Shown here one piece after another: positions 1,457 through 62,067 of a DNA stretch of 64,000 nucleotides. The first letter of the stretch is position 1; the number at the start of each line of letters is the position of its first letter. This stretch comes from an uncultured Candidatus Saccharibacteria bacterium. Its GTDB lineage: Bacteria > Patescibacteriota > Minisyncoccia > Phycocordibacterales > CAYRGE01. The notes below the pieces were generated by a model. It saw only the letters and a list, made by a program, of their open reading frames with translations. It was not told the DNA's origin and searched no databases. The translations under genes were made by a program, and so were the position numbers. The stretch is taken from contig CAZTCT010000001.1 of assembly GCA_964612415.1 (NCBI GenBank), positions 137,949 to 201,948 of the forward strand, given 5' to 3'.

Positions 1457-2826
1457 TTTTTTCTTTAAAAAAGACAGAGCTACTTCTTGGAGTTTTTGTC
1501 TTCCTTTTTTATACAAGTCTTCTTGCGGCGATTGTTTTGGTGGGAAATGGGCGCGGGCTTCAAGCAGAAAATGTTTTTTCCCCTGAGGGGACGGATGCTC
1601 GCGAGTACGTTTCTCTGGCTCAAACATTAGTCTCCTCGCAACGGTATGCGATATCTCCTGATAGCCCCCCAGAGTATTTCAGGAGTCCTGGATATCCTAT
1701 GTTTATTGCCCCAATCCTTTCCGTAACGGATTCAACAGCTGTTCTTATTGTTGTCCAAATACTGCTAGTATCGGTTTCTGCTGTGTTTATTTATAAAATT
1801 GCGGCGGAATTATTTTCTCATTGGGTTGGCTTGGTCACTACCCTTATCTTTGTCTTAGATCCGGCAGTTATTACAACCTCACTCGTTACCCTTACCGAGC
1901 CTCTTTTTATAGCACTACTGCTTGGTACTACATGGGTTCTATTGCGGGAACACTCAACGAGAAACGTTATTTTGGCGGGAGTGCTTATGGGGGCACTTAT
2001 CCTTACACGCCCAGTAGGGATCTTTTTGGCCCCATTGTTTGTCTGCTTACTGATATATAAGGGGAATAAGGATTTAAAGACTATTTTGATAAGGAGTGCC
2101 GCCTTTGTTGGCGTAAGTGTCGTTGTTTTTGTTCCATGGATGATTAGGAATGTGTATCTTTCTGGGCATTTTTCACTTTCTTCCATATCGACCTATAACA
2201 TGCTTTTTTACAACGTAGTTGAGTTTGAAGTACAGAAAGGAGCCCCCAAAACAGAATTCATTAAAGGTCTTCAAGAACGCCTCGGGAGCAATAGTGATTT
2301 TGAGCTTCGGTCTTTTGACTATGCCGCAGAAGAACAAGCCCTTATCCACGAGTACCTTACGGGGCATGTTTTTTCGTACGCACTATTTCATCTGACAAAA
2401 ACAGCCCCCTTCTTCTTAGGGAGTAGTCTTGATGTTGCTGAGCGGCATTTATTTGGGCTTGGGCTTTTGGATAGGGAGCCAGGACCAAGTGCAAATATAT
2501 CTGGTCTTCTAATTTCAGGGGATGTAGAGGGTGTGATGTCTTTAATGCGCGAGCATTTTTGGATAACAGGGGAAAGAATTTGTTGGCTGCTACTCACAAT
2601 ACTTGCTCTTAGTTTGCCAGTGGTTCTGTTTTTTAAAAAAGATTCTCGCGCGGCAATCGCGCTGCTCTTCTCCCTGCTAATTCTTTTGTTTGCGATACTG
2701 GCTGGCCCTGTTTCGCACCCTCGATACCGAATCCCAGCAGAACCCTTCTTGCTCATTCTTGCCTTCGGCAACATTTATGTTATTAGTAAAGCGATTTGGG
2801 CCGCGTATGCCAAGAAATTTATATGA
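1453..2826 (+). CDS. Polytopic membrane glycosyltransferase, GT-C fold (ArnT/PMT, GT83/GT39-like)
   Basis: More than 10 predicted TM helices. The first extracytoplasmic loop carries a GTDAREY motif resembling the GT-C catalytic D-x-x-E-Y. The ATGA start/stop overlaps the pgk stop. The longer upstream start at 1432 is less likely. Confidence 0.5.
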   Translation: MIFSLKKTELLLGVFVFLFYTSLLAAIVLVGNGRGLQAENVFSPEGTDAREYVSLAQTLVSSQRYAISPDSPPEYFRSPGYPMFIAPILSVTDSTAVLIVVQILLVSVSAVFIYKIAAELFSHWVGLVTTLIFVLDPAVITTSLVTLTEPLFIALLLGTTWVLLREHSTRNVILAGVLMGALILTRPVGIFLAPLFVCLLIYKGNKDLKTILIRSAAFVGVSVVVFVPWMIRNVYLSGHFSLSSISTYNMLFYNVVEFEVQKGAPKTEFIKGLQERLGSNSDFELRSFDYAAEEQALIHEYLTGHVFSYALFHLTKTAPFFLGSSLDVAERHLFGLGLLDREPGPSANISGLLISGDVEGVMSLMREHFWITGERICWLLLTILALSLPVVLFFKKDSRAAIALLFSLLILLFAILAGPVSHPRYRIPAEPFLLILAFGNIYVISKAIWAAYAKKFI

Positions 2827-3272
2827 ATACTCCAACTGACATTGTTACATCACCGGAATCTGAAAGTGGAATAACGACGACTATTATAGGCTCTCGTACT
2901 ACCCAGGAATTTGTTCGTTATTTTGCAGCATCTCTCCTTGCGCTTATAGTTGACATTGGGTCTCTTGCTTTACTAACAAGTTTTTTTCACGTCCCGTATC
3001 TTACATCAGGATGGATTGCATTTACCTTCGGGTTGACCATTGTGTATTTATTGAGCATCTTTTGGGTTTTTGAGGTGCGCAAAGTGCGAAATGTCTGGAT
3101 TGAGTTCTTTGCCTTCCTTATTATCGGAGTTGTTGGTCTTGGGATCAATGAGGTAATTCTCTGGGTCTTTACAGGTCTTCTTGGGTTTTTCTACCTTATA
3201 TCAAAAATCGGAAGTGTAATTGTTGTTTTCACATGGAATTTTTTTGCACGTAAATTTTTGCTTTTCCAATAA
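2823..3272 (+). CDS. GtrA-like small membrane protein (polysaccharide-synthesis associated)
   Basis: About 150 aa with four hydrophobic helices and a GtrA-family-like layout. ATGA overlap with the upstream GT-C gene suggests translational coupling. Confidence 0.45.
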
Positions 3273-3273
3273 T

Positions 3274-4839
3274 ATGACTAGCGATAATCAAAAAAAGAAA
3301 ACAGCTGTCATTATTGGTGGTGGGCCCGCTGGGCTGACAGCAGCATATGAGCTTCTCCTTCGAACAGACATAAAGCCAATCATCCTAGAGCGCGACCCTA
3401 AGTATGTTGGAGGGATTTCCAGGACCGTTGATTATAAAGGGAACAAGATTGATATTGGGGGCCACCGGTTTTTTTCAAAATCAGATCGCATCATGCAGTG
3501 GTGGGCAGAAATGCTTCCAATTCGGTTCAAAGAAGGATCTTCGGATATTACTTACCAACGGACTACGCGCGCACTTACAGAAGGGCTTGCCATGGCAAAT
3601 GACTCACATGGAGAAAATGTGATGCATGTTCGCCCGCGAAAGACTCGCATTTTGTACGGGAATAATTTCTATGCATATCCGGTGGAGCTTTCTTGGGATA
3701 CGCTGCGTAAGTTAGGGCCGATAAAAGTCTTTAAAATTGGCGTAACATATACATGGTCCACACTTTTCCCTCGGAAGCCGGAGAAGACTCTAGAAGATTT
3801 TTTCATCAATAGGTTTGGAGAGGAACTTTATAAAACATTTTTCAAATCATATACGGAGAAGGTGTGGGGTGTTTCGTGCAGTGAATTGTCTGCCGAATGG
3901 GGCGCACAGCGGGTCAAAGGTCTTTCTATAAAGAAGGTAATCACACATGCGCTTAAAAAGGTGTTTTCATTTGGGCCTCTTTCAGGGAAGTCTGTTGAGA
4001 CATCGCTTATTGAACAATTTCTTTATCCAGCGTATGGGCCTGGTTTTATGTGGGAAACGGTTGCAAAAAATATCAAACAACTTGGCGGAGAGATATACAT
4101 GGGCGCTGATGTGGTGCGCTTAGATCACAAGGAGATGAAAGTGGTAGATGTCTTGTGTAAAGTCGATGGGCGGGGGCAGTCTTTCCACGCAGATTATGTC
4201 TTTTCTAGTACAGATATAAAGACCCTTTCAAAAATTATGTCACCATCTGTGCCACAGTCAGTCAAAGAAGTATCTGACGGTCTTGAATATCGAGATTTTA
4301 TTACAGTTGGGCTTCTATTAGAAAGACCCCCTCAAGAAAAAAATGGAGAGCCTATCTCTGACACATGGATGTATATTCATGAACCAGGCGTGTCGGTGGG
4401 GAGAATTCAGTTCTTTCACAACTGGGACCCACTTCTCCTTGCCTCACCAGAGAATGGGTGGGTTGGGCTTGAGTTCTTTTGCGCCGAAGGAGATGCTTTG
4501 TGGAGTATGAAGGACGAGCATCTGGCTAAACTTGCAACAAAGGAGTTTATGCAATTAGGGCTTTGCGAAAATAATGTGGTCTTAGACACGGTTGTTATTC
4601 GACAGCCAAAAGCGTATCCTGGGTATTTTGGGAGCTATACTCAATTTTCTGAAATAAGAGATTACTTTGATAAATTCAATAACCTGTTCCTTGTAGGGAG
4701 AAATGGGATGCATCGTTATAACAATCAAGATCATTCAATGCTTGCCGCAATGGCCGCGGTGGACTTCATATTGGGGAATGTTGAAAGGGAAGCAATCTGG
4801 AGTGTAAATACTGAAGAGAGCTACCACGAAACCAAATAG
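3274..4839 (+). CDS. FAD/NAD(P)-binding oxidoreductase (amine-oxidase / UDP-galactopyranose-mutase-like Rossmann fold)
   Basis: N-terminal dinucleotide-binding motif [16 protein letters not shown]. 521 aa. Co-located with glycosyltransferase genes. Confidence 0.55.
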
Positions 4840-4852
4840 AACAAAAAACAAA

Positions 4853-4873
4853 GCCACCTGGTTTCAGGTGGCT
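4853..4873. terminator. Hairpin gccacctg-gtttc-aggtggc between convergent genes; putative bidirectional terminator
   Basis: Perfect 7-8 bp inverted repeat, A/T-flanked, lying between the 3' ends of the 3274-4839(+) and 4902-5882(-) genes. Confidence 0.4.
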
Positions 4874-4901
4874 GTAAAATATAAAGCAAAAATTGGTAGA
4901 A

Positions 4902-5882
4902 CTATTTTTGCAATGTTCTGCCAGAGGACCATAAAGGGGGACAGTTTAGCATCCATCTTCCTGCGGGCCAATTTCTCATGTGTAGCACCATCAAGGAAAC
5001 ATTAGATGTGCCATTCCCCAGAAAGAACTGGGCTTGTGAAGCCAGGAGGGTGTCAATCATGACCTCTTGCCCAAGTTCTACTCCAGATGCATACAAATGG
5101 TGTGAGCCTGTGTTGTTGCATGTACGCTTACAGTCTGTCGCGATAACTCGAGCACCGAAGTGCTGTCGTGTTATATCAAGCCACCTGGTATCATCCGTGA
5201 GTAAGAAAATCTTCACTTCCTGCGGGACTGTTTTGAGCACCTTCATGCCAGACATGTTGACGTCATTGATATTTGGCACCTCGGTGAATTTGTCCGATCC
5301 ACGAATGTGTACGGCAGCATAGGGCCCTTGAAGATTCTCCTGTCGGAAGATGTTTGCCCTAGCTACGATTTCCTGGCGGGGGCGCAAATATTTGGCGGTT
5401 AACCAACGGTAAATTTCTCCGGGATCTTTTTGGTACATCACGTGAGTAGGCGGGATGTGGGGTATCAAATCTACAACTCCAACGAAGAAATCGCAGACCG
5501 CGACTTCTTCATCTTGACCCAGATAGCTTTCGGGCTGCATTCTTGAATGGGGACCTGCCCATTTGGAGACTTCCTCAGTCAGATTCTCTTTGCTCCATTT
5601 GGGCGGGAAGAAATCCCCGTCCGGGATGTTGTTGATACCGGAAGAGTTGATTGGCTCGTAAAAATTTTCAAAACCTCCGAACAGACTGCTTCCTTCCCAA
5701 TGAATGACCGGAATGCGCTCTGTGATCTCTGCGAGCAGTAACGCTCCGAGTGTTGCGAAGACATCGCTGTAGAAACCACACCCCCAGCTTTTAATCAGGA
5801 GGTAGCCGTTATTTGTAGTGCTTTTGCGACGGGGAGTTGCTGACCGTAGTGAATCCGAGGTGAAACTTCTTTGTGCTTTCAC
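4902..5882 (-). CDS. Putative glycosyltransferase, fucosyltransferase-like (GT11/GT23-type HxRRGD motif family)
   Basis: Motif AVHIRGSDK resembles the HVRRGDY motif of alpha-1,2 and alpha-1,6 fucosyltransferases. The C-terminal DTLLASQAQFFLGNGTSNVS resembles GT11 motif III. The call rests on motifs only. Confidence 0.35.
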   Translation of the reverse strand: MKAQRSFTSDSLRSATPRRKSTTNNGYLLIKSWGCGFYSDVFATLGALLLAEITERIPVIHWEGSSLFGGFENFYEPINSSGINNIPDGDFFPPKWSKENLTEEVSKWAGPHSRMQPESYLGQDEEVAVCDFFVGVVDLIPHIPPTHVMYQKDPGEIYRWLTAKYLRPRQEIVARANIFRQENLQGPYAAVHIRGSDKFTEVPNINDVNMSGMKVLKTVPQEVKIFLLTDDTRWLDITRQHFGARVIATDCKRTCNNTGSHHLYASGVELGQEVMIDTLLASQAQFFLGNGTSNVSLMVLHMRNWPAGRWMLNCPPLWSSGRTLQK

Positions 5883-5992
5883 GTGGCTCTCCTTTAGGCA
5901 ATATTGCCAAGATATGTGAATGATCTTCTTTTACAATCATAGCAAAAAAATGGTGCTTTGTCAATGTTAGATGGAGTTAATTGATTCACTTT

Positions 5993-6400
5993 TTATAGAA
6001 GTTCGCGGATTTTTTGTGCAGTTTTTTCCATCTCTCCTTCTTTGTAAGGTGATCCTACCCAATGGGTGTGGCCGTCATCTTTATGGCGAGTTATCACATG
6101 AAAGTGAGCATGAAAAATAAGTTGCCCAGCATAGCCCCCGTTGTTCATGTGAATATTTATGCCGTCTGCATTCACTGCCTCTTTTGCTGCTGCAGCAAGT
6201 TTTTTTAAAATTGGAGCCATGTGAGATAAATCCTCATCAGGGATTTCGTGGAGATTTGCGTAGTGCTCCTTTGGGATTAAAAGTATGTGCCCGGGGTTTA
6301 CTGGTTTTATATCAAGGAACGCGTAGGATTTTTCGTCCTCATACACTTTTTCGCTTGGGGTTTCTCCGGCAACAATCTTGCAAAAGAGGCAATCATTCAT
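5993..6400 (-). CDS. HIT-family (histidine triad) nucleotide hydrolase
   Basis: Histidine triad HAHFHVI. Conserved N-terminus MNDCLFCKI starts at an internal Met (ATG at 6400-6398). The longer ORF-track start at 6559 would overlap recJ. Confidence 0.8.
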   Translation of the reverse strand: MNDCLFCKIVAGETPSEKVYEDEKSYAFLDIKPVNPGHILLIPKEHYANLHEIPDEDLSHMAPILKKLAAAAKEAVNADGINIHMNNGGYAGQLIFHAHFHVITRHKDDGHTHWVGSPYKEGEMEKTAQKIRELL

Positions 6401-16041: not shown

Positions 16042-16066
16042 AGATTTTATTGCTAAAAAAGGGAGA

Positions 16067-16102
16067 AAAAACGGCTCAACCGATCGGTTGAGCCGTTTTT
16101 TG
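16067..16102. terminator. Palindromic terminator element, family copy 2 (aaaaaacggctcaaccgatcggttgagccgtttttt)
   Basis: Perfect 14-bp palindrome with an A-run upstream and a T-run downstream, immediately after fusA. Confidence 0.65.
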
Positions 16103-16178
16103 GTAGTATCGCGAACCTTTTAGATTGGCGGGATTGTGGTATTTTTAAGAAGGAATACACAACAGAGGAGCTTAAGAT

Positions 16179-32316: not shown

Positions 32317-35079
32317 ATGGCATCTCAAAATTTTGAGCGTCCTTCGCAGCCACTTGCATCGCCTTCTGCTGAGGTGGAGTACTTAAGGCAGGGCGTGCAC
32401 AACAAAGAGCGCGCATACAGAAAAGAAGGGCAATCCTTTGAGCGTCCAGCTGTTGCCCGTGAAGTTGTTAAGGCATATGAAGCAGCGCCTGTTTCTTCGG
32501 TGCTGGATTCTTCGCTTGCAATGAAACGAAGTGAGATTGAAAAATCTGTGCTCCATCTCTCAGCTTCTCATGAAGAAAATGTTGAGAAACTTGCTTCTAT
32601 TATGGAAACAAAGGGAGTGAAGAATGCACTTGAGGTTGCGAAGCGGGCAGGCAATCCCCATCTTGAAGACGATTTCCATCGCTTTCTCATTCAATATCTT
32701 GTAGAAAACGGATCAATCGCGGGACTCAAAGAAGGGACGCCTCTTTTCAAAGCACTTCACATGAAGCTCTTTGAAGTCATTTTGCCGCATACAGATGATG
32801 CAGGGCGTGATAGAAGATTTTCTGAAATAGTATCAGCGATGGAGCAGTTTTATGCGGGGATGCTCTCAGTGTCTGATCAGGGAGAGAAGCTCAAGCAGCA
32901 CTTTACTATTGAACTTGCGCTTTCAAACTATACAGATGAGATGGTGTTGTACTCTGCAATACCCGGACACAAAGCAGAAATGTTCCAGAAACATCTCTTT
33001 GCTATTTTCCCAGATGCACGCATTACAGAGCGCAGAGAAGATTACAATCCTTTTAATTCCAACGGTATTTCGCTTGGCGCGGTTGGGAGATTCGCGGCGT
33101 CACCGCTGTTGCCTATTAAGACATATGAGTCTTTTGATGCTGATCCACTCAACGTCATTCTCAATGCGTTCTCAAAGATGAAGAAAGACGGGGAAGGGGC
33201 TGCAATACAGATTGTCATTGCACCTGCGGGAGATAAATTCAACAAACTTTATGAGTCTGCGGCGGAGAAGCTTAAGAAGGGTGCGTCGCTTAAAGAGGTG
33301 AGTGCTTCTGCAGGGGCAACCGTTGCGAAAGAATTTCTCGGCACCGCGCGCGATATGTTTTTTGGTTCCAAGACTCCAACCAAAGAAGAATCTAAAGAAG
33401 TAAATCAAAAAGCTGTAGAAGGAGTTACTGCCAAGATCTCTGCACCTATTGTATCGGTCAATATTCGTGTCGTTACATCCGCGGAGACGGAGTTGCGCGC
33501 CAGGACTATTCTTGAAAATCTTATCTCCGCATTCAATCAGTTCAATAATACCAATGGGAATTCATTCACATTTACTCCTTTAGGCAAAAAAGATGTTTCG
33601 CCACTTTTACACCAATTCACCTTCCGACTTTTTTCAGAGGACGAGAGTTTGCCGCTCAATACAAAAGAGTTAACCACGATATTCCATTTTCCGTCTGTTG
33701 GAGTGAAATCATCAGAGCTGAAGTATGCAAAAGTGAAATCATCCGCAGCTCCTCACGGGGCATCGGGGGAGGGCATTCTTTTGGGGGTGAACAATCATCA
33801 AGGCGTGCGTAATGAAATCCACTTTGCCCCAGAAGATAGGATGCGGCACTTCTATGTAATCGGTCAGACTGGCACAGGAAAGACCACACTTCTCAAGAAC
33901 ATGATTATACAAGACATAGAGGCAGGAGCTGGTGTCTGTATGATAGACCCACATGGAAGCGATATTGATGATATATTGGCGGCAATCCCACCTCATCGTG
34001 TGGACGATGTGGTCTACTTTGACCCTGCAAGCCCAATTCCTATGGGGCTTAACATGCTTGAATATGATCCTGCTCACCCAGAACAAAAGACTTTTGTAGT
34101 AAACGAGCTACTTTCTATATTTCAGAAACTCTATGCCAGTTCACCTGAATCAATGGGGCCAATGTTTGAGCAATATTTTCGCAATGCCACCATGCTTGTG
34201 ATTGAAGATCCGAGTACGGGTAGCACGCTGCTCGAGGTTTCTCGCGTGCTGTCTGATGCAAAGTTCCGCGCACTCAAACTCTCGCGTTGCCACAATCCTG
34301 TTGTCCTACAGTTTTGGAACGAGATTGCGTCCAAGTCTTCAGGGGAAGCCGCACTTGCCAATATCGTTCCTTACATCACCAACAAGTTTGATGTATTTCT
34401 CGCCAATGACATCATGAGGCCGATCATTGCCCAAGAAAAATCCGCGTTTAACTTCAGACAGATCATGGATGAGCGCAAGATATTCTTAGTCAATCTTGCA
34501 AAGGGGCGCATTGGAGACATCAACTCGCAACTTCTCGGACTCATTTTGGTAGGAAAAATTCTTATGGCGGCACTCTCTCGTGTAGATGCGCAAGAGCGTC
34601 CAGACTTCTATCTCTATATAGATGAATTTCAGAATGTCACGACCGATTCTATTGCAACGATTTTGTCTGAAGCCCGCAAATACAGGCTCGGGCTCAATGT
34701 CGCGCACCAATTCATTGCTCAATTGGTAGATCGTATTCGCGACGCTGTTTTTGGTAACGTGGGTTCTATGGCGGTATTTCGCGTGGGCACTGAAGATGCG
34801 CAATTCTTGGAAAAACAATTTTCTCCCACCTTTACTGCTCGTGATATCATGAATCTTGAGAACAGGAATGCGTACATGAAGATGCTTGTGAATGGGCAAC
34901 CGGAAGCACCTTTTAATATTGAGACCTTACCGCCTCCAAAAGGGGACATGGCGCTTGTGGCGAAGCTCAAAGAGATCTCATCGCTTACTTATGGACGTGA
35001 TAGGCAGGAGGTAGAGGCAGAAATCGCGAAAAAATACCAAAAAGCCCCTCCCGCACAGCCTTCCCAGCAAGGGGCTTGA
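32317..35079 (+). CDS. Large P-loop ATPase, conjugative coupling protein-like (TraG/TraD/VirD4, TrwB_AAD_bind/AAA_10 type) with approximately 500-aa N-terminal domain of unknown function and no predicted TM anchor
   Basis: Walker A GQTGTGKTT. 22 aa downstream is IDPHGS, resembling the x-DPKG-D of type IV coupling proteins. Walker B is YIDEFQNV, then SEARKYRLGLNVAHQF. The N-terminal half is hydrophilic with no TM helix. Confidence 0.5.
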   Translation: MASQNFERPSQPLASPSAEVEYLRQGVHNKERAYRKEGQSFERPAVAREVVKAYEAAPVSSVLDSSLAMKRSEIEKSVLHLSASHEENVEKLASIMETKGVKNALEVAKRAGNPHLEDDFHRFLIQYLVENGSIAGLKEGTPLFKALHMKLFEVILPHTDDAGRDRRFSEIVSAMEQFYAGMLSVSDQGEKLKQHFTIELALSNYTDEMVLYSAIPGHKAEMFQKHLFAIFPDARITERREDYNPFNSNGISLGAVGRFAASPLLPIKTYESFDADPLNVILNAFSKMKKDGEGAAIQIVIAPAGDKFNKLYESAAEKLKKGASLKEVSASAGATVAKEFLGTARDMFFGSKTPTKEESKEVNQKAVEGVTAKISAPIVSVNIRVVTSAETELRARTILENLISAFNQFNNTNGNSFTFTPLGKKDVSPLLHQFTFRLFSEDESLPLNTKELTTIFHFPSVGVKSSELKYAKVKSSAAPHGASGEGILLGVNNHQGVRNEIHFAPEDRMRHFYVIGQTGTGKTTLLKNMIIQDIEAGAGVCMIDPHGSDIDDILAAIPPHRVDDVVYFDPASPIPMGLNMLEYDPAHPEQKTFVVNELLSIFQKLYASSPESMGPMFEQYFRNATMLVIEDPSTGSTLLEVSRVLSDAKFRALKLSRCHNPVVLQFWNEIASKSSGEAALANIVPYITNKFDVFLANDIMRPIIAQEKSAFNFRQIMDERKIFLVNLAKGRIGDINSQLLGLILVGKILMAALSRVDAQERPDFYLYIDEFQNVTTDSIATILSEARKYRLGLNVAHQFIAQLVDRIRDAVFGNVGSMAVFRVGTEDAQFLEKQFSPTFTARDIMNLENRNAYMKMLVNGQPEAPFNIETLPPPKGDMALVAKLKEISSLTYGRDRQEVEAEIAKKYQKAPPAQPSQQGA

Positions 35080-35114
35080 TAAATATTAATTAATGTGATA
35101 TAATTAAAAACAAT

Positions 35115-38100
35115 ATGAGTATGGAAGGAAGGCCAAGGATGCCATCAGAAGAGACCCCAGAAGGGAGTGGAATGACTCCTGAAGATACTAATTTAGAGAA
35201 TACTGAACGTGTTGAGCCCGATCTCCACGGGGCCGCTGAAGAGATTTTAGAACAAAGGGGTGAAACTGGAATTGAAGTTCCAGTTATTTCTGTTGGAGAT
35301 GAAGCGCAAGAAGATCCAGAGGGAGGTGTTTTAGAAGGAGAAGCTCTTGATAATGCTTTGCGAGAAGCGTTGCACGGAGATGACGCAAGGTTTGAGCAGA
35401 ATGTTCAGATAGAAACAGGTGAAATTGCTCCGGTTCAAGGAGAGCATAACGACAAGTATGTACTTCATGAAGAAAATGGAGCTCGTGTCTGGCGTAAAAA
35501 TAACGGAGATGAATCTACTCCAATACAAGAGGGGACTCCTGATGCGCAAAACGGATCAGAAGCACTTATAAACGACGGAGCGCTTGAAGGACAAGAAGAA
35601 GGTGAGGGTACACCTATTGATGCGGATGCCGAAAAGGCACAAGAACCGGCGGTGAGCAAGGAAGAAGTCTCAGCTACCCCAGAAAGTATAGAACGAGAAC
35701 CAGGGTCTCTCGCTGTTGCGCTTGAAGAGACCGCACAGAGTGTTGTTGCAGAAAAACAAGAACGGATGGAGGAGGCCCTCTCTCCTGAACAAATAGCGAC
35801 ACCAGAATATGCCAAGAAGGCAATTGATCACGAACTTGCTCGTTTAGGTATAAACCCGGAGGACATTGCAAAAGACGAAGCTTTCAAAGAATTTAACGAA
35901 CTCTCAGATGGACAGAAGCTTCTTGTTGCGCGCGATCTCAATAGATTTGCTTTCTCTGAATCAAAAATAAAAGCGCACGAGGAATTTAATAAGAGAAACC
36001 AGGAAGAAGGTGTTTTGAATGTAAAGAGAATTGCCCGCAATGTATTCCGCAACGTTAATATCGCTTCGTACCGGAAAGCGGAACTTAAAAAAGCGATGGC
36101 AGGGGGTGTGGGTATGCACGGAGAGACACTCAAAGTTCTTGCAGAAAAAGCCAAGATTGGTCCTGAGGTAGAGATTGACTCAGCGGGGAATCTCAATGTT
36201 CAGTATGCAAAACTTGAAGGCCTTTCTGCTGAAGAACAGAAGGTTGTGAGATTTTACAACAAAGTTGCAGGTAATTATGGCCGAACTCCTGCTGAGTGGG
36301 GCAACAAGAGCGCAACGAATGAGCAGAAAATGGAGTATTGGGCGAATAAAGAGGAGTACAACAGGGCAAGAAAAGAACTCTTGGCCCTTAAAGAGGCGAA
36401 GAGTTCTTCTGAAGATGCCATGCAGTATGTGAATAGTCTTGATGCTCTTGTAACACAGGACCAGTTTTTAAATACAGTCTCAGGAGAGAAACTTGAAGAA
36501 TCAATGCAAAGAGCTGCGACAGGGAGTGCTCTATGGCAAGGGTGGAAGGAAACGATTACTGAGAGAGGCATGTATGCCGCAGTTGGTGCGGGGACACGCT
36601 TTGCTGTTGTAGGTGCATTGGGGATTGCTGCTGTCCCAGTGATGGGTGCTACAGTTGCGCCTGTTGCCGTAGGAGCTATTGCTGCTTCTGCGCTTGTGGG
36701 ACGATGGATTGGGCGAAGACGCATGAGACAAACTCTAGATGAAAAAGAGATGCTTCGCCGCCATGGAGACAAGGCGTCTGAAGAGCAGAAAAATGTCTGG
36801 AAGGACAAACTTGCAAAGACAACTCGTGCAACAGACGGAGGGGATATCGAAAGTTATAAAAAGGGAGCGAATGAGCGTGGCAAAATCTTGGAGAAGCGCT
36901 ATGCAGAGCGGGGTATTACCGTTTCTGCAGAAGCGCTTGATGACAAGCTTGGGTTAGCTTTTGCGCAATTTGAGAAGGAGGAAGATCCTAAAAAGCGCAG
37001 TAAGGCGCTGGTATCTTTACGTGCACGTATTGGCTATACACAAGACAAGATCGATAAAGGGGAGGTTAACTTTGGCAATGGCGTAGACCAGCTTAAAAAT
37101 CAACTTGACCTCATTCAGGGGCTCTCAAGAGCACGCGCTCACTCAGTGATAGAAGACCCTGACGTTAAAAAAGAACTTGACGAGAAGATGGGCGAGCTTA
37201 CGAAGTATCAGGGGCACATGCGCAGCCGAGTTGAACAAGCCGAGAAGAAGAGGATCAACGCTGCGGGGAGGACAGGGGCTCTTATTGCAGCTACATTTAC
37301 TGGTGCATCTTATGCAATTACAGACTTTGTTATGTCTGGGAAAGGCGCTAACCTTGCAGATAATGCAAAGGAGTTTGCTGGGCATTTGAAAGCAAAACTT
37401 CCATATGGGCTTGGAGACGAAGAGCTCCACCGAGAGCTTGAGAGTTCAGCTGCTCGAGTCTATAACCCAGGTTCAGAGAATGGGAGCAATCTTTGGAATA
37501 TGATAGAACACGATCTTCGGGGAGATCTCAAAGGACTTGAGGGACATGAACGCGATGCCGTTATCATGGCTGGCTTGAATAAGTTTCGTGAACTTACCCC
37601 AGAGCAACTCAAAGAGATTGGTTTTTCATCAGCAAGTGGAGAAAATAATGTTGAGAATATATTAAAACTTGTGAGACCTACAGATCGCATTAATTTTTCG
37701 CGAGTTTACAATACAGCAGATCTGCACAATATTCTTGGACGTATGCACGCAGTGGCTCTTGAGAAGGGGGAAATGCCAGTCCCGGCGACAGGTTCTTCTG
37801 TTGTGGCAGAGAGTGCCACTTCATCTGGTACGCCAACTGCCCCAGCTCATGTGCCTAGTGGGGGGAAGGCGCCTTCTGTGAGCGAACTACCTTCGTCTGC
37901 AGGCAAAAGCGTACCACCTGAAGCTGCTGACATGCCACTTACGACACAGCGCGCTATTCCATCAGAGCCAAAAGGGAATGGTTCTATATTTAGTACTGAC
38001 GAGATTGAAAAGTATCGAGGATCAGGCGGCGGGAAAGTTGAACAAGTTGCGTATACTCCTCGGACTCCACAGGAAATCGTCAAAATCCCATCAAGTGATT

Positions 38101-39386
38101 TTGAACGACAGGTTATTTATACCGAGCTTAATAATGATGTGAATCTGATCGTGCCAGGTGGGGCAAGGGGCGCAAACTGGATGTATGTAAAAGGTGAATC
38201 AGTGGAGCGTCTAATGAATACTCGCCTTCAAGCCCCTCGTGCCGGGTATGTACCACAGCAGAGGAGTCCTTGGTCAGTAAGCGGAAGAATTCATATTGGT
38301 GGTCGCCATTCGGCATCTCAAGATTTTCTTAGAATTGAACATCGGCCCACACCTCCACCGCCAGTATATAGAGGTCCATTGCCAGTAGGACTTCGTTCTC
38401 CAGAGACAGTGGCGAATTTGCAAAGTTACATCAATGCCCTTGAAGAGCAGAGCGGTCTTTCATGGAGAAGGAGCGGCTACTCTGTTGAAAGATATATATA
38501 TGAGGCGACCAAAGTTTCAGGAAGGATGAACAATGTACCTGGCTTTGGCGACAACCCGATTCCTGGACCCGGCGGAGGACTCACCAGATCAAGCGGATGG
38601 TCTCAGGCTATTGCTGAGAACATGCGCAATAATGTCAACCAAGTTCCTAATGCAAAAGTTGCTGATGAATTTGTCAGAGACCATTTCAATGAATTCACAT
38701 CGCAATACTACTCTTCTCCAGAAGGAAGGAGTGATGCGGACCTCAATGTGATGCTTCAGAATGCGTACAAGATGCGCACCTCTCTTAATGAGCTCAACGA
38801 CAAATTTGGTATTTCTGATTATCAGGCGCGAAGCGAGCAGATTGAGGGAATCATCACAAAACTAGAGCGACAGACAGGGGCATCAAGTGGGGCTCCTCGC
38901 ATCGTGGCACGGGTATATGAAGAAAAGGATTTAACACCTTCTTCATTTAGCAAATTAGAACCTGGAGAGATTAAGGATATTCTCAATGTGCCTGTAGGCG
39001 AAGAAGAAGGGAAAGAGGTCATGAAGAATGTTGCCGATGAAGTAAATAAAATCTTCCAAACAAATGGCGCGCCAAAGAATGGGTTTGATTATGGAGAAGG
39101 AATTGGAAATATGAGTGCTGACTGGGAGGATATGAAAGGGAGGACTATAGATGAAATTCTCCATGCCAAGCTTCCTACCTCAAAGATCGTCGACGGCAAA
39201 ATCATTCCTCCAGAGGAGGGGGTCGGCATTCACTCTACGAAATTTTTGACGAAGGTACGCGCAGAGCTTATCCCCAAACTAGAATACCAAAGCGGTCTTC
39301 CTGCACATGGGCCAACTACACTTGAAGATTATATTAAGGATGCCCACGTACTTATAAAACGCGGACCTGACTTTAAGCCTGAATAA
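35115..39386 (+). CDS. Giant (1423 aa) protein: strongly acidic N-terminal region, central double-TM hairpin, long charged/coiled-coil and Pro/Gly-containing C-terminal region; function unknown
   Basis: Uninterrupted ORF. The first approximately 200 aa are Glu/Asp-rich. The hydrophobic segment GMYAAVGAGTRFAVVGALGIAAVPVMGATVAPVAVGAIAASALVGRWIGRRR would make two TM helices. It sits immediately downstream of the coupling-ATPase-like gene. Confidence 0.5.
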   Translation: MSMEGRPRMPSEETPEGSGMTPEDTNLENTERVEPDLHGAAEEILEQRGETGIEVPVISVGDEAQEDPEGGVLEGEALDNALREALHGDDARFEQNVQIETGEIAPVQGEHNDKYVLHEENGARVWRKNNGDESTPIQEGTPDAQNGSEALINDGALEGQEEGEGTPIDADAEKAQEPAVSKEEVSATPESIEREPGSLAVALEETAQSVVAEKQERMEEALSPEQIATPEYAKKAIDHELARLGINPEDIAKDEAFKEFNELSDGQKLLVARDLNRFAFSESKIKAHEEFNKRNQEEGVLNVKRIARNVFRNVNIASYRKAELKKAMAGGVGMHGETLKVLAEKAKIGPEVEIDSAGNLNVQYAKLEGLSAEEQKVVRFYNKVAGNYGRTPAEWGNKSATNEQKMEYWANKEEYNRARKELLALKEAKSSSEDAMQYVNSLDALVTQDQFLNTVSGEKLEESMQRAATGSALWQGWKETITERGMYAAVGAGTRFAVVGALGIAAVPVMGATVAPVAVGAIAASALVGRWIGRRRMRQTLDEKEMLRRHGDKASEEQKNVWKDKLAKTTRATDGGDIESYKKGANERGKILEKRYAERGITVSAEALDDKLGLAFAQFEKEEDPKKRSKALVSLRARIGYTQDKIDKGEVNFGNGVDQLKNQLDLIQGLSRARAHSVIEDPDVKKELDEKMGELTKYQGHMRSRVEQAEKKRINAAGRTGALIAATFTGASYAITDFVMSGKGANLADNAKEFAGHLKAKLPYGLGDEELHRELESSAARVYNPGSENGSNLWNMIEHDLRGDLKGLEGHERDAVIMAGLNKFRELTPEQLKEIGFSSASGENNVENILKLVRPTDRINFSRVYNTADLHNILGRMHAVALEKGEMPVPATGSSVVAESATSSGTPTAPAHVPSGGKAPSVSELPSSAGKSVPPEAADMPLTTQRAIPSEPKGNGSIFSTDEIEKYRGSGGGKVEQVAYTPRTPQEIVKIPSSDFERQVIYTELNNDVNLIVPGGARGANWMYVKGESVERLMNTRLQAPRAGYVPQQRSPWSVSGRIHIGGRHSASQDFLRIEHRPTPPPPVYRGPLPVGLRSPETVANLQSYINALEEQSGLSWRRSGYSVERYIYEATKVSGRMNNVPGFGDNPIPGPGGGLTRSSGWSQAIAENMRNNVNQVPNAKVADEFVRDHFNEFTSQYYSSPEGRSDADLNVMLQNAYKMRTSLNELNDKFGISDYQARSEQIEGIITKLERQTGASSGAPRIVARVYEEKDLTPSSFSKLEPGEIKDILNVPVGEEEGKEVMKNVADEVNKIFQTNGAPKNGFDYGEGIGNMSADWEDMKGRTIDEILHAKLPTSKIVDGKIIPPEEGVGIHSTKFLTKVRAELIPKLEYQSGLPAHGPTTLEDYIKDAHVLIKRGPDFKPE

Positions 39387-41944: not shown

Positions 41945-42571
41945 ATGAATGAAAAAAAGCATGACCACCTAAAAGTAAAAATATGTGTTTCTGGCGCAGC
42001 TGAGACAGGACACTGTGGTATGGATGCGCTTGATCGCGCCAAAGATCTCGGACGAGAGATTATACGCAACAATGCAGTGATCGTGACTGGTGCAACCACA
42101 GGGTTCCCCATGTGGTCAGCTATTGGCGCGAAGGAAGAAGGCGGAATTTCAATCGGGCTTTCTCCTGCATCAACCGAGAAAGAGCATGTTGAAAGCTATC
42201 GTCTCCCACTAGACTACATGGACGTCATCATTTATACAGGATTTGGATATTCGGGGCGCAACCTTCTTCTTACCCGTTCGTCTGATGCGGTGATAGTGGG
42301 GTGTGGACGCATTGGGACCATCAACGAATTTACGATTGCGTATGAGGACCATAAGCCCATCGGCATCTTACAGGGGAGCTGGGAGACAGACGAGGTTATC
42401 AAGCTTATCTTAGATAAAGGGCATCGTGGCGATGGGAATGTTGTTTTCGATACTAATCCGAAGCGTCTTGTGGAGAAAGTGCTCAAGCTCGTAGAGGAGC
42501 AGAAGACGAGAGATAATTACGTCTATAAGAATGTAAAGATTGAAGGAGGAGGAGGGAAGCGAATCTACTAA
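41945..42571 (+). CDS. TIGR00725/LOG-family Rossmann-fold protein (SLOG superfamily)
   Basis: ICVSGAAETGH...VIVTGATTGFPMWSAIGAKEEGGISIGLSP...IYTGFGYSGRNLLL pattern of LOG/TIGR00725 proteins. Confidence 0.55.
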   Translation: MNEKKHDHLKVKICVSGAAETGHCGMDALDRAKDLGREIIRNNAVIVTGATTGFPMWSAIGAKEEGGISIGLSPASTEKEHVESYRLPLDYMDVIIYTGFGYSGRNLLLTRSSDAVIVGCGRIGTINEFTIAYEDHKPIGILQGSWETDEVIKLILDKGHRGDGNVVFDTNPKRLVEKVLKLVEEQKTRDNYVYKNVKIEGGGGKRIY

Positions 42572-42583
42572 AAAAGTGCAATA

Positions 42584-42618
42584 AAAAACGGCTCAACCGA
42601 TCGGTTGAGCCGTTTTTC
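42584..42618. terminator. Palindromic terminator element, family copy 3 (aaaaaacggctcaaccgatcggttgagccgttttt)
   Basis: Identical core to copy 2, between convergent genes 41945-42571(+) and rplT(-). Confidence 0.65.
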
Positions 42619-42634
42619 CATCCCAAGAGAGGGG

Positions 42635-48766: not shown

Positions 48767-48782
48767 GTAAGAAATAGGTAAG

Positions 48783-48817
48783 AAAAACGGCTCAACCGAG
48801 CGGTTGAGCCGTTTTTT
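48783..48817. terminator. Palindromic terminator element, family copy 4 (aaaaacggctcaaccgagcggttgagccgtttttt)
   Basis: Same stem as copies 2 and 3 with one central substitution (gatc to gagc), between ftsH(+) and the tRNA(-). Confidence 0.6.
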
Positions 48818-48818
48818 C

Positions 48819-48894
48819 TGGTCCGCCTGGCAGGACTCGAACCTACAACCACGGAGATATAAGCTCCGTGCTCTAACCATTGAGCTACAGGCGG
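48819..48894 (-). tRNA. tRNA with anticodon UAU (tRNA-Ile, AUA-reading); CCA encoded
   Basis: Cloverleaf: CCGCCUG-UA-GCUC-AAUGGUUA-GAGC-A-CGGAG-CUUAUAU-CUCCG-UGGUU-GUAGG-UUCGAGU-CCUGC-CAGGCGG-A-CCA. 7/4/5/5-bp stems, U33, A37. Confidence 0.7.
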
Positions 48895-58342: not shown

Positions 58343-60523
58343 TTATTCAAAATGTGTACCAAGAGAACGGGATACATGTTTCTCCCCCAACGTACTCTTT
58401 GAGAGAAAATCAGGATTTTCCAAAAGAATCCTCTCAGCCTCTGCGCGTGCGGCTTTTACCATATCAAGATTTTTTATTGCCTGCATACCAACATCGGAAA
58501 TACCCCACTGTTTTCCTCCAGATAATTCGCCTGCGCCACGGAGCTCAAGATCAAGTTCGGCAAGCTCAAAGCCATTTTTCGCTTTCACCAGCGCAGAGAG
58601 GCGCTTGTTTGTCTCGGCACTCTCGCTTGAGACAAAGCAATACGCCTGATGGGAACTTCTAAGCACCCGACCTCTTAGTTGGTGTAGTTGAGCAAGGCCA
58701 AATCGCTCTGCGCCTTCAATGAGAATCACGGAGGCATTGGGGACATTCACCCCTACTTCAACAACTGATGTTGCGACAAGAATATCTATTTCTCCCTGAG
58801 CAAATCGCTCCATCACCTCATCTTTTGCTTTAGGTGTCATCTTGCCATGCAGTACGGCAATCTCCTTATCAGGGAACACTTCCTTCTTAAGACGTTTTGC
58901 TTCTGCGACGGCCGACTTTGCATCAAGCGCATTCTTTTTGTCTGGGTCAGGTTCATCAATACGCGGACATATCACATAAGCTTGTCGTCCGGCGGTGAGC
59001 TCTTTACTCATCGTTTCGTAAGCCCGCGCAACTGTTTTTTTGCTGACAATTTCTGTGATAATAGTTTTGCGACCTTTAGGCATCTCGTCAATGATTGAGA
59101 GATCAAGGTCGCCATAGAGTGTAAGTGCGAGCGTGCGTGGGATGGGGGTTGCAGTCATGGATAAGAGATGAGGTGCAGGAGTCCGCATCTCACCCTCTTG
59201 TCCTTTGCGTGAGAGCTTCATTCTCTGCATGACGCCAAAGCGGTGCTGTTCATCAATAATCACGCACGCAAGATTCTTGAAGCGCACGGTTTTTTGTATG
59301 AGCGCATGAGTGCCTACTACAATTGAAATGTCGCCGCTTGCAACCCATTTAAGAAATTGAGCGCGGGAAATATCAGTATGCGAATCTGGGGAAACCTTAG
59401 AAGGGAATTTCCTGCATCCGGAGCCAGTAATGAGACCTATTTGAATAGGTAAGTGAGAAAAATAAGAGATGAATGATTCAAAGTGCTGCTTAGCGAGAAT
59501 CTCTGTCGGGGCCATATACGCCACTTGCAGGTTGGTGTATTGAAGTGACGATGGCTTTGCCATGACTATGGCATATGCAGCAGCTGCTGCGACGAGTGTC
59601 TTGCCAGAACCAACATCACCTTCAAGGAGTCGTGTGCCAGGACTGCCCTTTGAGAGGTCTTTAAGTATCTCGTCTATTGCTCTGCGTTGAGCATTTGTCG
59701 GAGGGAAGGGGAATCGCTCTAGGAACTTTGTGACATGAGTGTTTGCATCCTCAACATGATACGCCGGGTATTTTGCATACTCTTGTTTTTGTTTAAGGCG
59801 TCCAAGTTGGATAAAAAATATCTCCTGGAAAGAAAAACGTTTCTGGGCAGCTTGCGCGTCTGACTCCTTGCGTGGTGCGTGCATCCATACCAAGGCGGTC
59901 TTCAGAGATGGAAGGTGGTATCTTTTAAGGATCTCTTCGGGGATAGGGTCTTGGAGATGTTCGTGAATCCCTGTTTTCAGTACACGCTCAATATGATGAT
60001 GAAACCACCGAGATGAGAGATTCCCTCGTGCTGGGTATATAGGGTAGAGATTGGAAGTAAGTTCTTTACCAAAGAGTGGCAGGGAAAGCTCATCAAGGAC
60101 TTCTTGTGCTATGGGCTCTACTATTGGGTTTGCTAAATAAAGCGAACCACTACGCTCAGATATTGTGCCAGCTGCTTTGACGGGCATTCCTTTCTTTAAC
60201 ATCTTTGCGATGTAGGGTTGGTGGAACCAAATGATTTTAAGAGACCCGGTTTGGTCTTTGATCACTCCTTCTGCCATAGGGATCTTTGAGCGGAATGTTT
60301 TTGCGGTTTTAAGTGACGAGATGACTCCGAAGACAGTGATCTTTGCTCCTTTATTTATGGATGATATAGCCTGCGCTTCTGTAAGGTTTTGATATCGAGA
60401 GGGGAAGTATTGCAAGAGATCGGCAAGCGTCTCAATTCTCAAGCTTTCAAGTGCGCGAGACTGTTTTGGGTCTATACGAAAGTAGTCAGAAAGTGGAGTG
60501 TCTGGCGTGGCGGGAAGATTCAT
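58343..60523 (-). CDS. recG: ATP-dependent DNA helicase RecG
   Basis: N-terminal wedge/OB region, helicase motifs (GDVGSGKT, DEQHRFGV) and the C-terminal TRG motif. 726 aa. Confidence 0.9.
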   Translation of the reverse strand: MNLPATPDTPLSDYFRIDPKQSRALESLRIETLADLLQYFPSRYQNLTEAQAISSINKGAKITVFGVISSLKTAKTFRSKIPMAEGVIKDQTGSLKIIWFHQPYIAKMLKKGMPVKAAGTISERSGSLYLANPIVEPIAQEVLDELSLPLFGKELTSNLYPIYPARGNLSSRWFHHHIERVLKTGIHEHLQDPIPEEILKRYHLPSLKTALVWMHAPRKESDAQAAQKRFSFQEIFFIQLGRLKQKQEYAKYPAYHVEDANTHVTKFLERFPFPPTNAQRRAIDEILKDLSKGSPGTRLLEGDVGSGKTLVAAAAAYAIVMAKPSSLQYTNLQVAYMAPTEILAKQHFESFISYFSHLPIQIGLITGSGCRKFPSKVSPDSHTDISRAQFLKWVASGDISIVVGTHALIQKTVRFKNLACVIIDEQHRFGVMQRMKLSRKGQEGEMRTPAPHLLSMTATPIPRTLALTLYGDLDLSIIDEMPKGRKTIITEIVSKKTVARAYETMSKELTAGRQAYVICPRIDEPDPDKKNALDAKSAVAEAKRLKKEVFPDKEIAVLHGKMTPKAKDEVMERFAQGEIDILVATSVVEVGVNVPNASVILIEGAERFGLAQLHQLRGRVLRSSHQAYCFVSSESAETNKRLSALVKAKNGFELAELDLELRGAGELSGGKQWGISDVGMQAIKNLDMVKAARAEAERILLENPDFLSKSTLGEKHVSRSLGTHFE

Positions 60524-60623
60524 TGTATGACAATTGTATCATTTCTCTTGGTCTCAAGATGACGTGGTATACTTGGCGGCAGGTTTTGTTCCTCTTCAAC
60601 TAAATAAAAGTGAGGTAATCGCC

Positions 60624-61718
60624 ATGGAAACAATTGTATACGGCCTCTGGGGTCTTGCCTGGTGGCAGAAAATCCTTTTTGTCCTTGTGGCAACTCATAT
60701 TACGATCGCTTCGGTGACCATTTATCTGCATCGCGCGCAAGCACACCTTGCGCTGAGTCTGCATCCTGCGATCGCACATTTCTTCCGCTTTTGGCTCTGG
60801 CTTACTACTGGTATGCAAACGAAAGAATGGGTTGCAGTACATCGCAAGCATCATAGTACCGTTGAGACAGAGGCTGATCCGCATAGTCCCCAAGTGTTTG
60901 GCATCTGGAAAGTCCTTTTTGAAGGAAGTGAATTGTATACGCAGGCCCGGGCAGACAAGGAAATGGTTGAGCGATGGGGCAAAGGAGCTCCTGACGACTG
61001 GATTGAGCGGCACATCTACTCAATGCGGTGGCTTGGGATTTTCTCTTTGCTTATCGTCGACATTATTCTGTTTGGGATTTCAGGGATATCCGCATGGGGT
61101 GTTCAGATGCTCTGGATTCCATTTTTCGCGGCAGGTGTCATCAACGGCGGTGCGCACTATTTCGGGTATCGTAATTACGAAACAGATGACTCGTCAACAA
61201 ACCTCGTGCCGTGGGGGATATTGATCGGAGGCGAAGAGTTGCACAACAATCATCACCGTTTTCCTGTCTCAGCACGCTTTTCTGTGAAGAAAGGGGAGTT
61301 TGATGTAGGTTGGCTTTACATTCGTTTACTGGAGATATGTAAGCTTGCGCGGGTGAGCGCAGAAAAACTTGCTCCGCATTGGAATGAGCATGACCCAAGA
61401 TGGATGCTCAATCGATACAGACAGCAAGTACTGCTTCCTGTTGCCAAAGAAACTTTCTCCAAAGAGATGTATCGCCGATTCAAACGACTTGCCATGTATC
61501 AATCATGGAGTGCTTCGCATCGCGAGGAGCTCTCAGTGCTCCTCCGGCAGAACGATACTTTGGCTCGTATCTGGTACATGAGAGAAAGACTGGCCGCTTC
61601 TCTCCAGGAAAAAGGCGACTCAATTATTGCGTGGCGCAAAACTGCGCAAGAAAGTAGCATCAGACTACTGCAAGAGTTTGCCAAACGTTTCCAATCCTTA
61701 CCTCACAACGCCCAGTAG
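60624..61718 (+). CDS. Membrane fatty-acid (acyl-CoA/acyl-lipid) delta-9 desaturase with approximately 120-aa C-terminal extension
   Basis: Three histidine boxes in canonical order: HRAQAH, VHRKHHSTVETEADPHSP (HRxHH...DPH) and HNNHHRFP. Four predicted TM helices. Start set at METIVYG with an upstream GTGAGG SD. Confidence 0.75.
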   Translation: METIVYGLWGLAWWQKILFVLVATHITIASVTIYLHRAQAHLALSLHPAIAHFFRFWLWLTTGMQTKEWVAVHRKHHSTVETEADPHSPQVFGIWKVLFEGSELYTQARADKEMVERWGKGAPDDWIERHIYSMRWLGIFSLLIVDIILFGISGISAWGVQMLWIPFFAAGVINGGAHYFGYRNYETDDSSTNLVPWGILIGGEELHNNHHRFPVSARFSVKKGEFDVGWLYIRLLEICKLARVSAEKLAPHWNEHDPRWMLNRYRQQVLLPVAKETFSKEMYRRFKRLAMYQSWSASHREELSVLLRQNDTLARIWYMRERLAASLQEKGDSIIAWRKTAQESSIRLLQEFAKRFQSLPHNAQ

Positions 61719-61834
61719 GGCAATCCCGTTGCGGCTATATAAGTGCCGCACGACCCCGTAGAGACCCTCCTTAAGATATGACTCTTTCTGCGGGGTCTTT
61801 TTTGTATATGAATTTTAAATGTATGAGAGGGAGT

Positions 61835-61871
61835 TTAAAGCGGGTCAACCGATCGGTTGACCCGCTTTAAG
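61835..61871. terminator. Palindromic terminator element, family copy 5 (outer-stem variant: aaagcgggtcaaccgatcggttgacccgcttt)
   Basis: Conserved central tcaaccgatcggttga. The outer stem is replaced by compensatory gcggg/cccgc. Confidence 0.5.
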
Positions 61872-61895
61872 AAAAAAGGCTTAACAGAGGCAAAA

Positions 61896-61930
61896 TAAAC
61901 GGCTCAAGCGTACGCTTGAGCCGTTTATTT
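61896..61930. terminator. Palindromic terminator element, family copy 6 (inner variant: aaacggctcaagcgtacgcttgagccgttt)
   Basis: Conserved outer aacggctcaa/ttgagccgtt stem with the central tetramer changed to gcgtacgc. It is tandem to copy 5, between the desaturase(+) and tRNA-Ser(-). Confidence 0.55.
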
Positions 61931-61935
61931 CCTAC

Positions 61936-62021
61936 GGAGGCGGAAGGATTCGAACCTTCGGACCAGTTTCCCGGTCAGCAACTTAGCAGGTTGCTGCATT
62001 CGACCGCTCTGCCACGCCTCC
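61936..62021 (-). tRNA. tRNA-Ser (anticodon GCU), class II with long variable arm, G73 discriminator; CCA not encoded
   Basis: GGAGGCG-UG-GCAGAGCGGUCGAAUGC-A-GCAAC-CUGCUAA-GUUGC-UGACCGGGAAACUGGUCC-GAAGG-UUCGAAU-CCUUC-CGCCUCC-G. Confidence 0.75.
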
Positions 62022-62067
62022 AGTGTGAGAATGGTGCTACTCTAACACATTTTCTGTTTGCGGGCGA

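Follow-up and report, generated by a model that had tools for sequence, protein, structure and literature searches.

The 64-kb window considered here (the whole stretch of 64,000 nucleotides analysed from contig CAZTCT010000001.1) carries desA, a gene for a DesA-family membrane fatty acid desaturase, placed between recG and tRNA-Ser(GCU) in what is assigned below to a Paceibacteria genome of the Candidate Phyla Radiation (CPR). The gene occupies 60624..61718 on the + strand and is an open reading frame (ORF) of 364 amino acids (aa) with profile matches to the family, running from an ATG at 60624 to a TAG at 61716-61718; an earlier, sequence-only reading of this DNA had given the same coordinates, and the frame is intact. 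ATG 60624 is taken as the right start because a Shine-Dalgarno (SD)-like GTGAGGT lies at 60610-60616, 7 nt 5' of it, because an AAAG-GAGGT-N-ATG layout is common to the window gene and a distant orthologue in assembly L083, and because the match to the NCBIfam model NF049918 begins at residue 7. Longer versions starting at TTG (394 aa) or GTG (384 aa, the version in NCBI record P0002) are unsupported by the family model or by L083.

The metal-ligand motifs of DesA lie on the + strand in the first 211 residues. His box 1 is HRAQAH (aa 36-41, 60729..60746), in which H36 and H41 are invariant; His box 2 is HRKHH (aa 73-77, 60840-60854), which together with DPH (aa 85-87) spans 60840..60884, with H73, H76, H77, D85, P86 and H87 invariant; His box 3 is HNNHH (aa 207-211, 61242..61256), which is invariant throughout. 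A further segment, NGGAH (aa 174-178, 61143..61157), aligns to NSAAH of the mammalian desaturase SCD1 and is the counterpart of the SCD1 segment that supplies extra Asn/His metal ligands; both N174 and H178 are invariant. The ligand set therefore comprises eight His across the three boxes, plus H178 and N174. Every one of these named residues is invariant in a 69-sequence alignment of the DesA family, which has 80 invariant columns with the ligand set included; the window protein keeps all 80. The four motifs that the sequence-only reading had picked out (HRAQAH, HRKHH, DPH and HNNHH) are thus all present.

The family assignment comes from profile searches. The NCBIfam equivalog NF049918, 'DesA family fatty acid desaturase', gives the window protein 440.9 bits (E 4.4e-132), with a cut-off of 400, and Pfam FA_desaturase (PF00487) matches at E 1.2e-13; the NF049918 cut-off is also passed by two related protein records, P0003 (447.8) and P0004 (421.8), and by the L083 protein (522 bits). 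A typical DesA member scores 631 bits, so that the window protein lies near the cut-off. At E<=1, the Pfam and NCBIfam scans gave solely FA_desaturase/DesA matches and matches of the C-terminal tail to ISL3 models; AlkB, sterol desaturase/fatty acid hydroxylase and beta-carotene hydroxylase gave no match in them, and because the catalytic matches go to FA_desaturase and NF049918 alone, these other di-iron families are ruled out. The Pfam scan also found no cytochrome b5 domain. In the AlphaFold model, helices at 13-40, 48-62, 135-150 and 153-181 fit a four-transmembrane topology, in keeping with two long hydrophobic blocks in the sequence, and the predicted structure has the SCD1-like four-helix transmembrane fold. 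On these matches the protein is assigned as a DesA-family integral-membrane di-iron desaturase with intact ligands; the idea of a His-box, delta-9-type membrane desaturase stands, with PF00487 matched and no other His-box family in its place, whereas the placement in DesC/Ole1 does not, as the family is that of the Pseudomonas-type phospholipid desaturase DesA.

SCD1 (PDB 4ymk, 4zyo, 6wf2) is the only solved structural relative returned, and it is remote (E 1e-7, 16-21% identity); it differs from the window protein in using acyl-CoA as a substrate and cytochrome b5 as a donor, and in having no DesA/ISL3 tail. Because the closest solved structures are those of an acyl-CoA desaturase, and many database sources name the homologues 'stearoyl-CoA desaturase', it might be supposed that the window protein is a DesB/SCD/Ole1-like enzyme, acting on scavenged free fatty acids after their activation rather than on intact phospholipids. 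This is improbable, since 'stearoyl-CoA desaturase' is a label assigned automatically in KEGG style, the identity to SCD1 is low, NCBIfam returns the DesA equivalog and no other desaturase model, and the 64-kb window holds neither an acyl-CoA synthetase nor a DesC-like reductase partner.

The C-terminal tail (aa 251-364, 61374..61715, + strand) is a reduced DesA/ISL3 alpha bundle, recognised through NF049919, PF01610 and the helices of the AlphaFold model. It is 114 aa long and net basic (20 K+R against 12 D+E), and it is predicted to form six helices with a predicted local distance difference test (pLDDT) score of mostly 88-96; the sequence-only description of an extension of about 120 aa, basic and helical, was accurate. 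Its view of this extension as an unexplained novelty or new fusion was not, as the same tail is carried by nearly all DesA-family proteins: NF049919, 'DesA/ISL3 alpha bundle tail', matches over profile positions 12-119 of 122 with 27.2 bits (E 4e-06), slightly short of its cut-off of 30, which makes this score the one family-defining feature at which the window protein is marginal, and a precomputed partial PF01610 match is found on nearly all homologues listed. On NF049919 the score is 136 bits for P0019, a typical proteobacterial DesA, 71 for the L083 protein, and 19-30 for the window protein and those nearest to it. In pairwise and multiple alignments, the tail of the window lineage is ~30 residues shorter through three short deletions, which include a segment bearing two Cys conserved in the family consensus; this accounts for the length of the window protein relative to the ~390-400 aa of the DesA family.

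The ISL3 transposases (PF01610, NF033550) share with the DesA tail an alignable alpha-helical stretch, and the likeness is confined to this one helical module. The window tail aligns to positions 95-194 of PF01610 (DDE_Tnp_ISL3; E 0.015, 15.5 bits against a cut-off of 23) and to positions 217-321 of the ISL3 transposase model NF033550, where 14.4 bits fall so far below the cut-off of 180 that the protein is not a transposase. A transposase remnant is likewise ruled out, as only the helical tail module is aligned and the DDE catalytic core is missing. The proposal of a newly fused electron-donor-docking domain is not supported either: the tail has no cofactor motif, and a structure search with the confidently helical model found generic helix bundles and no electron-carrier fold. 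The tail is thus read, from its sequence, as the usual DesA/ISL3 appendage, trimmed and more diverged in the window lineage; it is no more than a guess that the family tail serves in structure, oligomerisation or partner docking, and literature searches on it returned nothing specific.

desA is under purifying selection, intact and maintained in the CPR chromosome. Compared with its 81% orthologue the window gene has a pS of 0.62 and a dS of ~1.3 (near saturation) with a dN of 0.105; dN/dS over the whole gene is 0.08, with 0.054 in residues 1-250 and 0.156 in the tail, which is therefore still constrained. The strongly constrained catalytic half and the retention of every family-invariant residue tell against a diverged reaction, such as another regiospecificity, a hydroxylation or another lipid substrate; this is an unlikely alternative, even though the CPR sequences are long-branched (root-to-tip 0.53-0.58 against 0.35-0.48 elsewhere), the tail is shortened and scores under the NF049919 cut-off, and the NF049918 score is near its own cut-off.

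The 5' side of the gene is also conserved. A region at 60564..60623 (+), inside the 100-bp divergent recG-desA intergenic region and containing the SD site, shows 4 differences in 60 nt from the related assembly L081 (~93% identical), whereas synonymous sites of desA differ at 62%; conservation so far above that of synonymous sites points to a conserved promoter or leader. It does not reach L083, where SD and ATG alone are in common, and RNA folding of the leader (a thermosensor/riboswitch-like test) gave z-scores of 0.07 and 1.05, nothing above shuffled sequences. A decaying, non-functional relic of a transfer, which the reduced tail and the patchy presence of the gene (desA is missing in the related assemblies L084 and L085) might suggest, is very unlikely given the intact ORF, a dN/dS of 0.08 with synonymous sites near saturation, the full set of ligands and the conserved SD and leader.

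The host is identified from the neighbouring gene and the content of the window. recG (58343..60523, - strand) is the divergent neighbour of desA and serves as both synteny anchor and taxonomic marker; its named relatives are Paceibacterota, Patescibacteria, Parcubacteria, Yonathbacteria, Zambryskibacteria or unclassified 'bacterium', and include no other phylum. The window further encodes the str/S10/spc ribosomal region with EF-G, EF-Tu and SecY, as well as ComEC, ComF, PilM, RecJ, FtsH, SmpB, tmRNA, a TraD/VirD4-like (type IV secretion system-like) coupling ATPase and two giant PA14/Ig/fn3 surface proteins. By these RecG relatives and this gene content the genome is placed in Paceibacteria (CPR/Patescibacteria), in agreement with the CPR-type organism that the sequence-only reading had envisaged; within the 64 kb no genes of fatty-acid or phospholipid synthesis were found, and no fab, acc or pls genes among them.

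In a search with DesA across a 5.8-billion-protein collection the close relatives, among the matches listed, are the protein itself (P0001, P0002), P0003 at 81% and P0004 at 54%; the other homologues listed there are 46-53% identical by BLASTP, one fragment aside, and those with names belong to Thiocapsa, Burkholderiaceae, Caldimonas, Methylomarinovum and similar. The listed homologues beyond the three close relatives are 43-56% identical, and those named or checked by context are overwhelmingly Pseudomonadota. Among GTDB one-genome-per-species contigs the best 80 matches are nearly all Pseudomonadota; the species representatives in that list include neither the source genome nor its near kin, and CPR copies may rank below these 80. 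A JGI metagenome contig scan with the DesA protein gave no further CPR copies, as ~45% identical proteobacterial DesA swamped it through the segment EELHNNHH. When the L083 DesA was used as query it proved a singleton; its next-best matches, at 51-54%, stand in proteobacterial contexts (hydantoinase upstream; rpmB/rpmG-radC-coaBC-dut downstream; GGDEF genes). CPR-clade copies are therefore rare among the listed matches, namely those of the window organism, P0003, P0004 and L083.

Because the homologues beyond the close relatives are so distant and so overwhelmingly from Pseudomonadota, desA is apparently an old horizontal acquisition from a Pseudomonadota-type donor; its GC of 0.48 equals that of the neighbouring genes, and the acquired sequence would by now be fully ameliorated. 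A neighbour-joining (NJ) tree with 50 bootstraps recovers the window protein, P0003 and P0004 as a clade in 50/50 replicates, and the conclusion is that desA has been inherited vertically within at least this lineage. Two long-branched gammaproteobacterial DesA proteins, L063 (single-amplified genome AG-461-I20) and L039 (Legionella feeleii), group with the CPR copies in the NJ tree or have rare residues in common with them; this affinity is either long-branch attraction or a hint of the donor lineage.

The divergent recG-desA pair is found in four assemblies that stem from different samples: L082, an independent assembly of the same organism (DesA 100%); L081 (DesA 81%, with a RecG fragment 83% identical); the P0004 contig (DesA 54%, RecG 77%); and L083 (DesA 45%, RecG 60%). 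In the Paceibacteria assemblies L084 and L085 (RecG 59%) desA is missing beside recG. On the other side of desA lies tRNA-Ser(GCU) (61934..62022, - strand), with the gene on its 3' side, and in L084 the corresponding slot from the 3' side of this tRNA to recG (3609-6000) holds a GH1 glycosidase and a DUF7282/cupredoxin-like protein instead; desA therefore occupies a tRNA-adjacent variable slot among relatives, which suggests a hot spot of integration beside tRNA-Ser(GCU) (desA side 61719-61933). An assembly or binning artefact, in which a proteobacterial gene was wrongly joined to a CPR contig, is scarcely credible: the nearest relatives outside the small clade are indeed Pseudomonadota, but CPR genes flank desA on both sides in one contiguous sequence, the recG junction recurs in the four assemblies at DesA identities from 100% to 45%, the GC is identical to that of the neighbours and, among the matches listed, no proteobacterial sequence is closer than ~56%. 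As the pair recurs in this way, the GC resembles that of the neighbours and dN/dS is 0.08, desA is regarded as a resident, functional gene.

The best-characterised comparison is with DesA of P. aeruginosa (PA0286), which performs O2-dependent delta-9 desaturation of 16:0 at the sn-2 position of existing phospholipids (PMC10634369). The window protein is ~45-50% identical to it and resembles it and the NF049918 family in the extra Asn/His ligands, the hydrophobic blocks and the type of helical tail. Its His boxes also match those of the homologue from Pseudomonas sp. A3, at 34-39, 71-75 and ~206-210; expression of this 394-aa protein in E. coli increased the unsaturated fatty acids there (PMC4975390). 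The setting differs, in that DesA of Pseudomonadota works in a host with its own FabAB pathway, while the window copy is in a Paceibacteria/CPR genome.

Des of Bacillus subtilis and cyanobacterial DesC are membrane desaturases with His boxes; their substrates are esterified lipids, and their electrons come from ferredoxin or flavodoxin. They belong to subfamilies different from that of the window DesA and have no DesA tail, and neither the NCBIfam nor the PDB search gave a match to them.

By analogy with the Pseudomonas enzyme, the window protein most likely desaturates acyl chains at delta-9 while they are esterified in (scavenged) phospholipids, in a reaction that depends on O2 and di-iron. 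A soluble donor of the ferredoxin or flavodoxin type would supply two electrons to the di-iron centre, which would activate O2; two hydrogens would then be removed at C9/C10 of a saturated C16/C18 chain in a membrane phospholipid, which would yield water and a cis-delta-9 monoene. The cell could in this manner tune the fluidity of its scavenged lipids in situ, though only in the presence of O2, and the presence of DesA would report at least periodic exposure of the cell to O2. Since the reaction needs neither acyl-ACP nor acyl-CoA, DesA suits a cell that imports finished lipids. CPR bacteria are described as having no lipid synthesis yet normal lipid membranes, the source and adjustment of their lipids being an open question (PMC7242380), and O2-dependent genes and enzymes have recently been recognised among them (PMC12577380). 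Literature searches gave no report of a fatty-acid desaturase in CPR, which is absence of evidence only; 'desaturase' in that literature refers to carotenoid CrtD.

Taken together, it is likely that the window encodes a functional DesA-family di-iron desaturase which became resident in a Paceibacteria (CPR) chromosome after transfer from a Pseudomonadota-type donor. A more specific reading is offered tentatively, with the balance tipped slightly against it: that a small Paceibacteria clade captured a proteobacterial phospholipid desaturase and kept it under selection to desaturate scavenged host phospholipids in situ. The donor would possibly have been the clade's own host lineage.

Several observations weigh against the broader interpretation, that of a functional DesA resident after transfer. 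Substrate and regiospecificity are extrapolated from a homologue that is just ~45-50% identical, and the 64-kb window holds no electron donor gene (no ferredoxin, flavodoxin or b5). Published work on CPR as a group makes it plausible that the host is without fatty acid synthesis. The tail falls short of the NF049919 cut-off. In the AlphaFold model, pLDDT falls to ~50 over residues 181-225 (61164-61298), with His box 3 included; this segment is invariant, whereas the diverged tail is modelled confidently, and the low confidence is probably an effect of metal-free modelling or of a shallow alignment. As for the history of the gene, adding L083 to the window clade gives monophyly in just 7/50 NJ bootstraps; L083 shares 4 rare residues with the clade (e.g. 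HH-x-TVET as against HHARCET), which is the highest count, although it is tied with a Legionella sequence. The L083 desA may be either the same acquisition as that of the window clade or a second insertion at the same spot.

The remaining elements around desA are small. Repeats resembling TGTATGACAATTGTATCA lie in the recG-desA intergenic region, toward recG. On the 3' side of desA, a terminator-like hairpin with a T-run (61780..61807, +) is only suggestive as the desA terminator, being one consensus match and not above shuffle expectation. Between this hairpin and tRNA-Ser is the palindrome GCGGGTCAACCGATCGGTTGACCCGC (61839..61866, no strand assigned), a variant of a repeated element: a near-identical palindromic element, AAAAAACGGCTCAACCGATCGGTTGAGCCGTTTTTT, occurs three times in the window, after fusA, in the gap between a SLOG/LOG-like gene and rplT, and after tRNA-Ile. 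The regions concerned are 16054-16113, 42571-42630 and 48770-48829, together with 61823-61882 for the GCGGGTCAACCGATCGGTTGACCCGC variant, and the palindrome core TCAACCGATCGGTTGA has 4 sites in the window against 0.11 expected. The repeated palindrome looks like a reused bidirectional intrinsic terminator.

On the far side of recG lie two giant secreted or surface proteins (~1375 and ~1762 aa, 48.9-58.3 kb, +), which are inserted between tRNA-Ile and recG, genes that adjoin in relatives. Their domains include PA14, Ig-like, fn3, dockerin/EF-hand, T4SS-pilin-like and peptidoglycan-binding, and they feature near-identical internal repeats and poly-Pro ends. The tRNA-Ile has the anticodon UAU (48819-48894, - strand) and is also found in L083 (4978-5053), L084 (8660-8734) and L085 (8669-8743), kept next to recG/ftsH; decoding of AUA by a UAU tRNA is uncommon in bacteria, most of which use a lysidine-modified CAU tRNA. 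As the TTG at 48804 overlaps this tRNA, the real start of the 1375-aa ORF is further downstream. Elsewhere in the window, downstream of the 920-aa TraD/VirD4-like coupling ATPase comes an ORF of 1423 aa with zero Pfam or NCBIfam matches (together 32317-39386, +), and a PMT_2-type glycosyltransferase, a GtrA-like protein and a 539-aa FAD oxidoreductase are clustered at 1432-4839 (+); the last of these scores 715 bits on NF005546 (PRK07208, 'hypothetical protein') and is amine-oxidase/UDP-galactopyranose-mutase-like.

Since this class of enzyme, its chemistry and the tail have all been catalogued before, the finding concerns ecology and evolution and not mechanism; what is unusual is the Paceibacteria host, the rarity of CPR copies and the trimmed tail. 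DesA acts on ready-made phospholipids and is thereby one of the few ways in which a CPR cell could itself change the saturation of its acyl chains, and its strict need for O2 adds to recent evidence of CPR that live with oxygen and make use of it (PMC12577380). As an example of gene flow from Pseudomonadota to a Paceibacteria chromosome, through a variable slot beside a tRNA, the locus is clean and datable, and it also offers a natural deletion series of the uncharacterised DesA/ISL3 tail. If the reading of a captured desaturase acting on scavenged lipids is true, DesA would give Paceibacteria-type CPR a first concrete enzyme of lipid remodelling and would mark an oxic lifestyle in the genome, and its trimmed tail would show which part of the DesA/ISL3 module is dispensable; desA is in this sense a testable lead on how CPR cells adjust the lipids that they scavenge.

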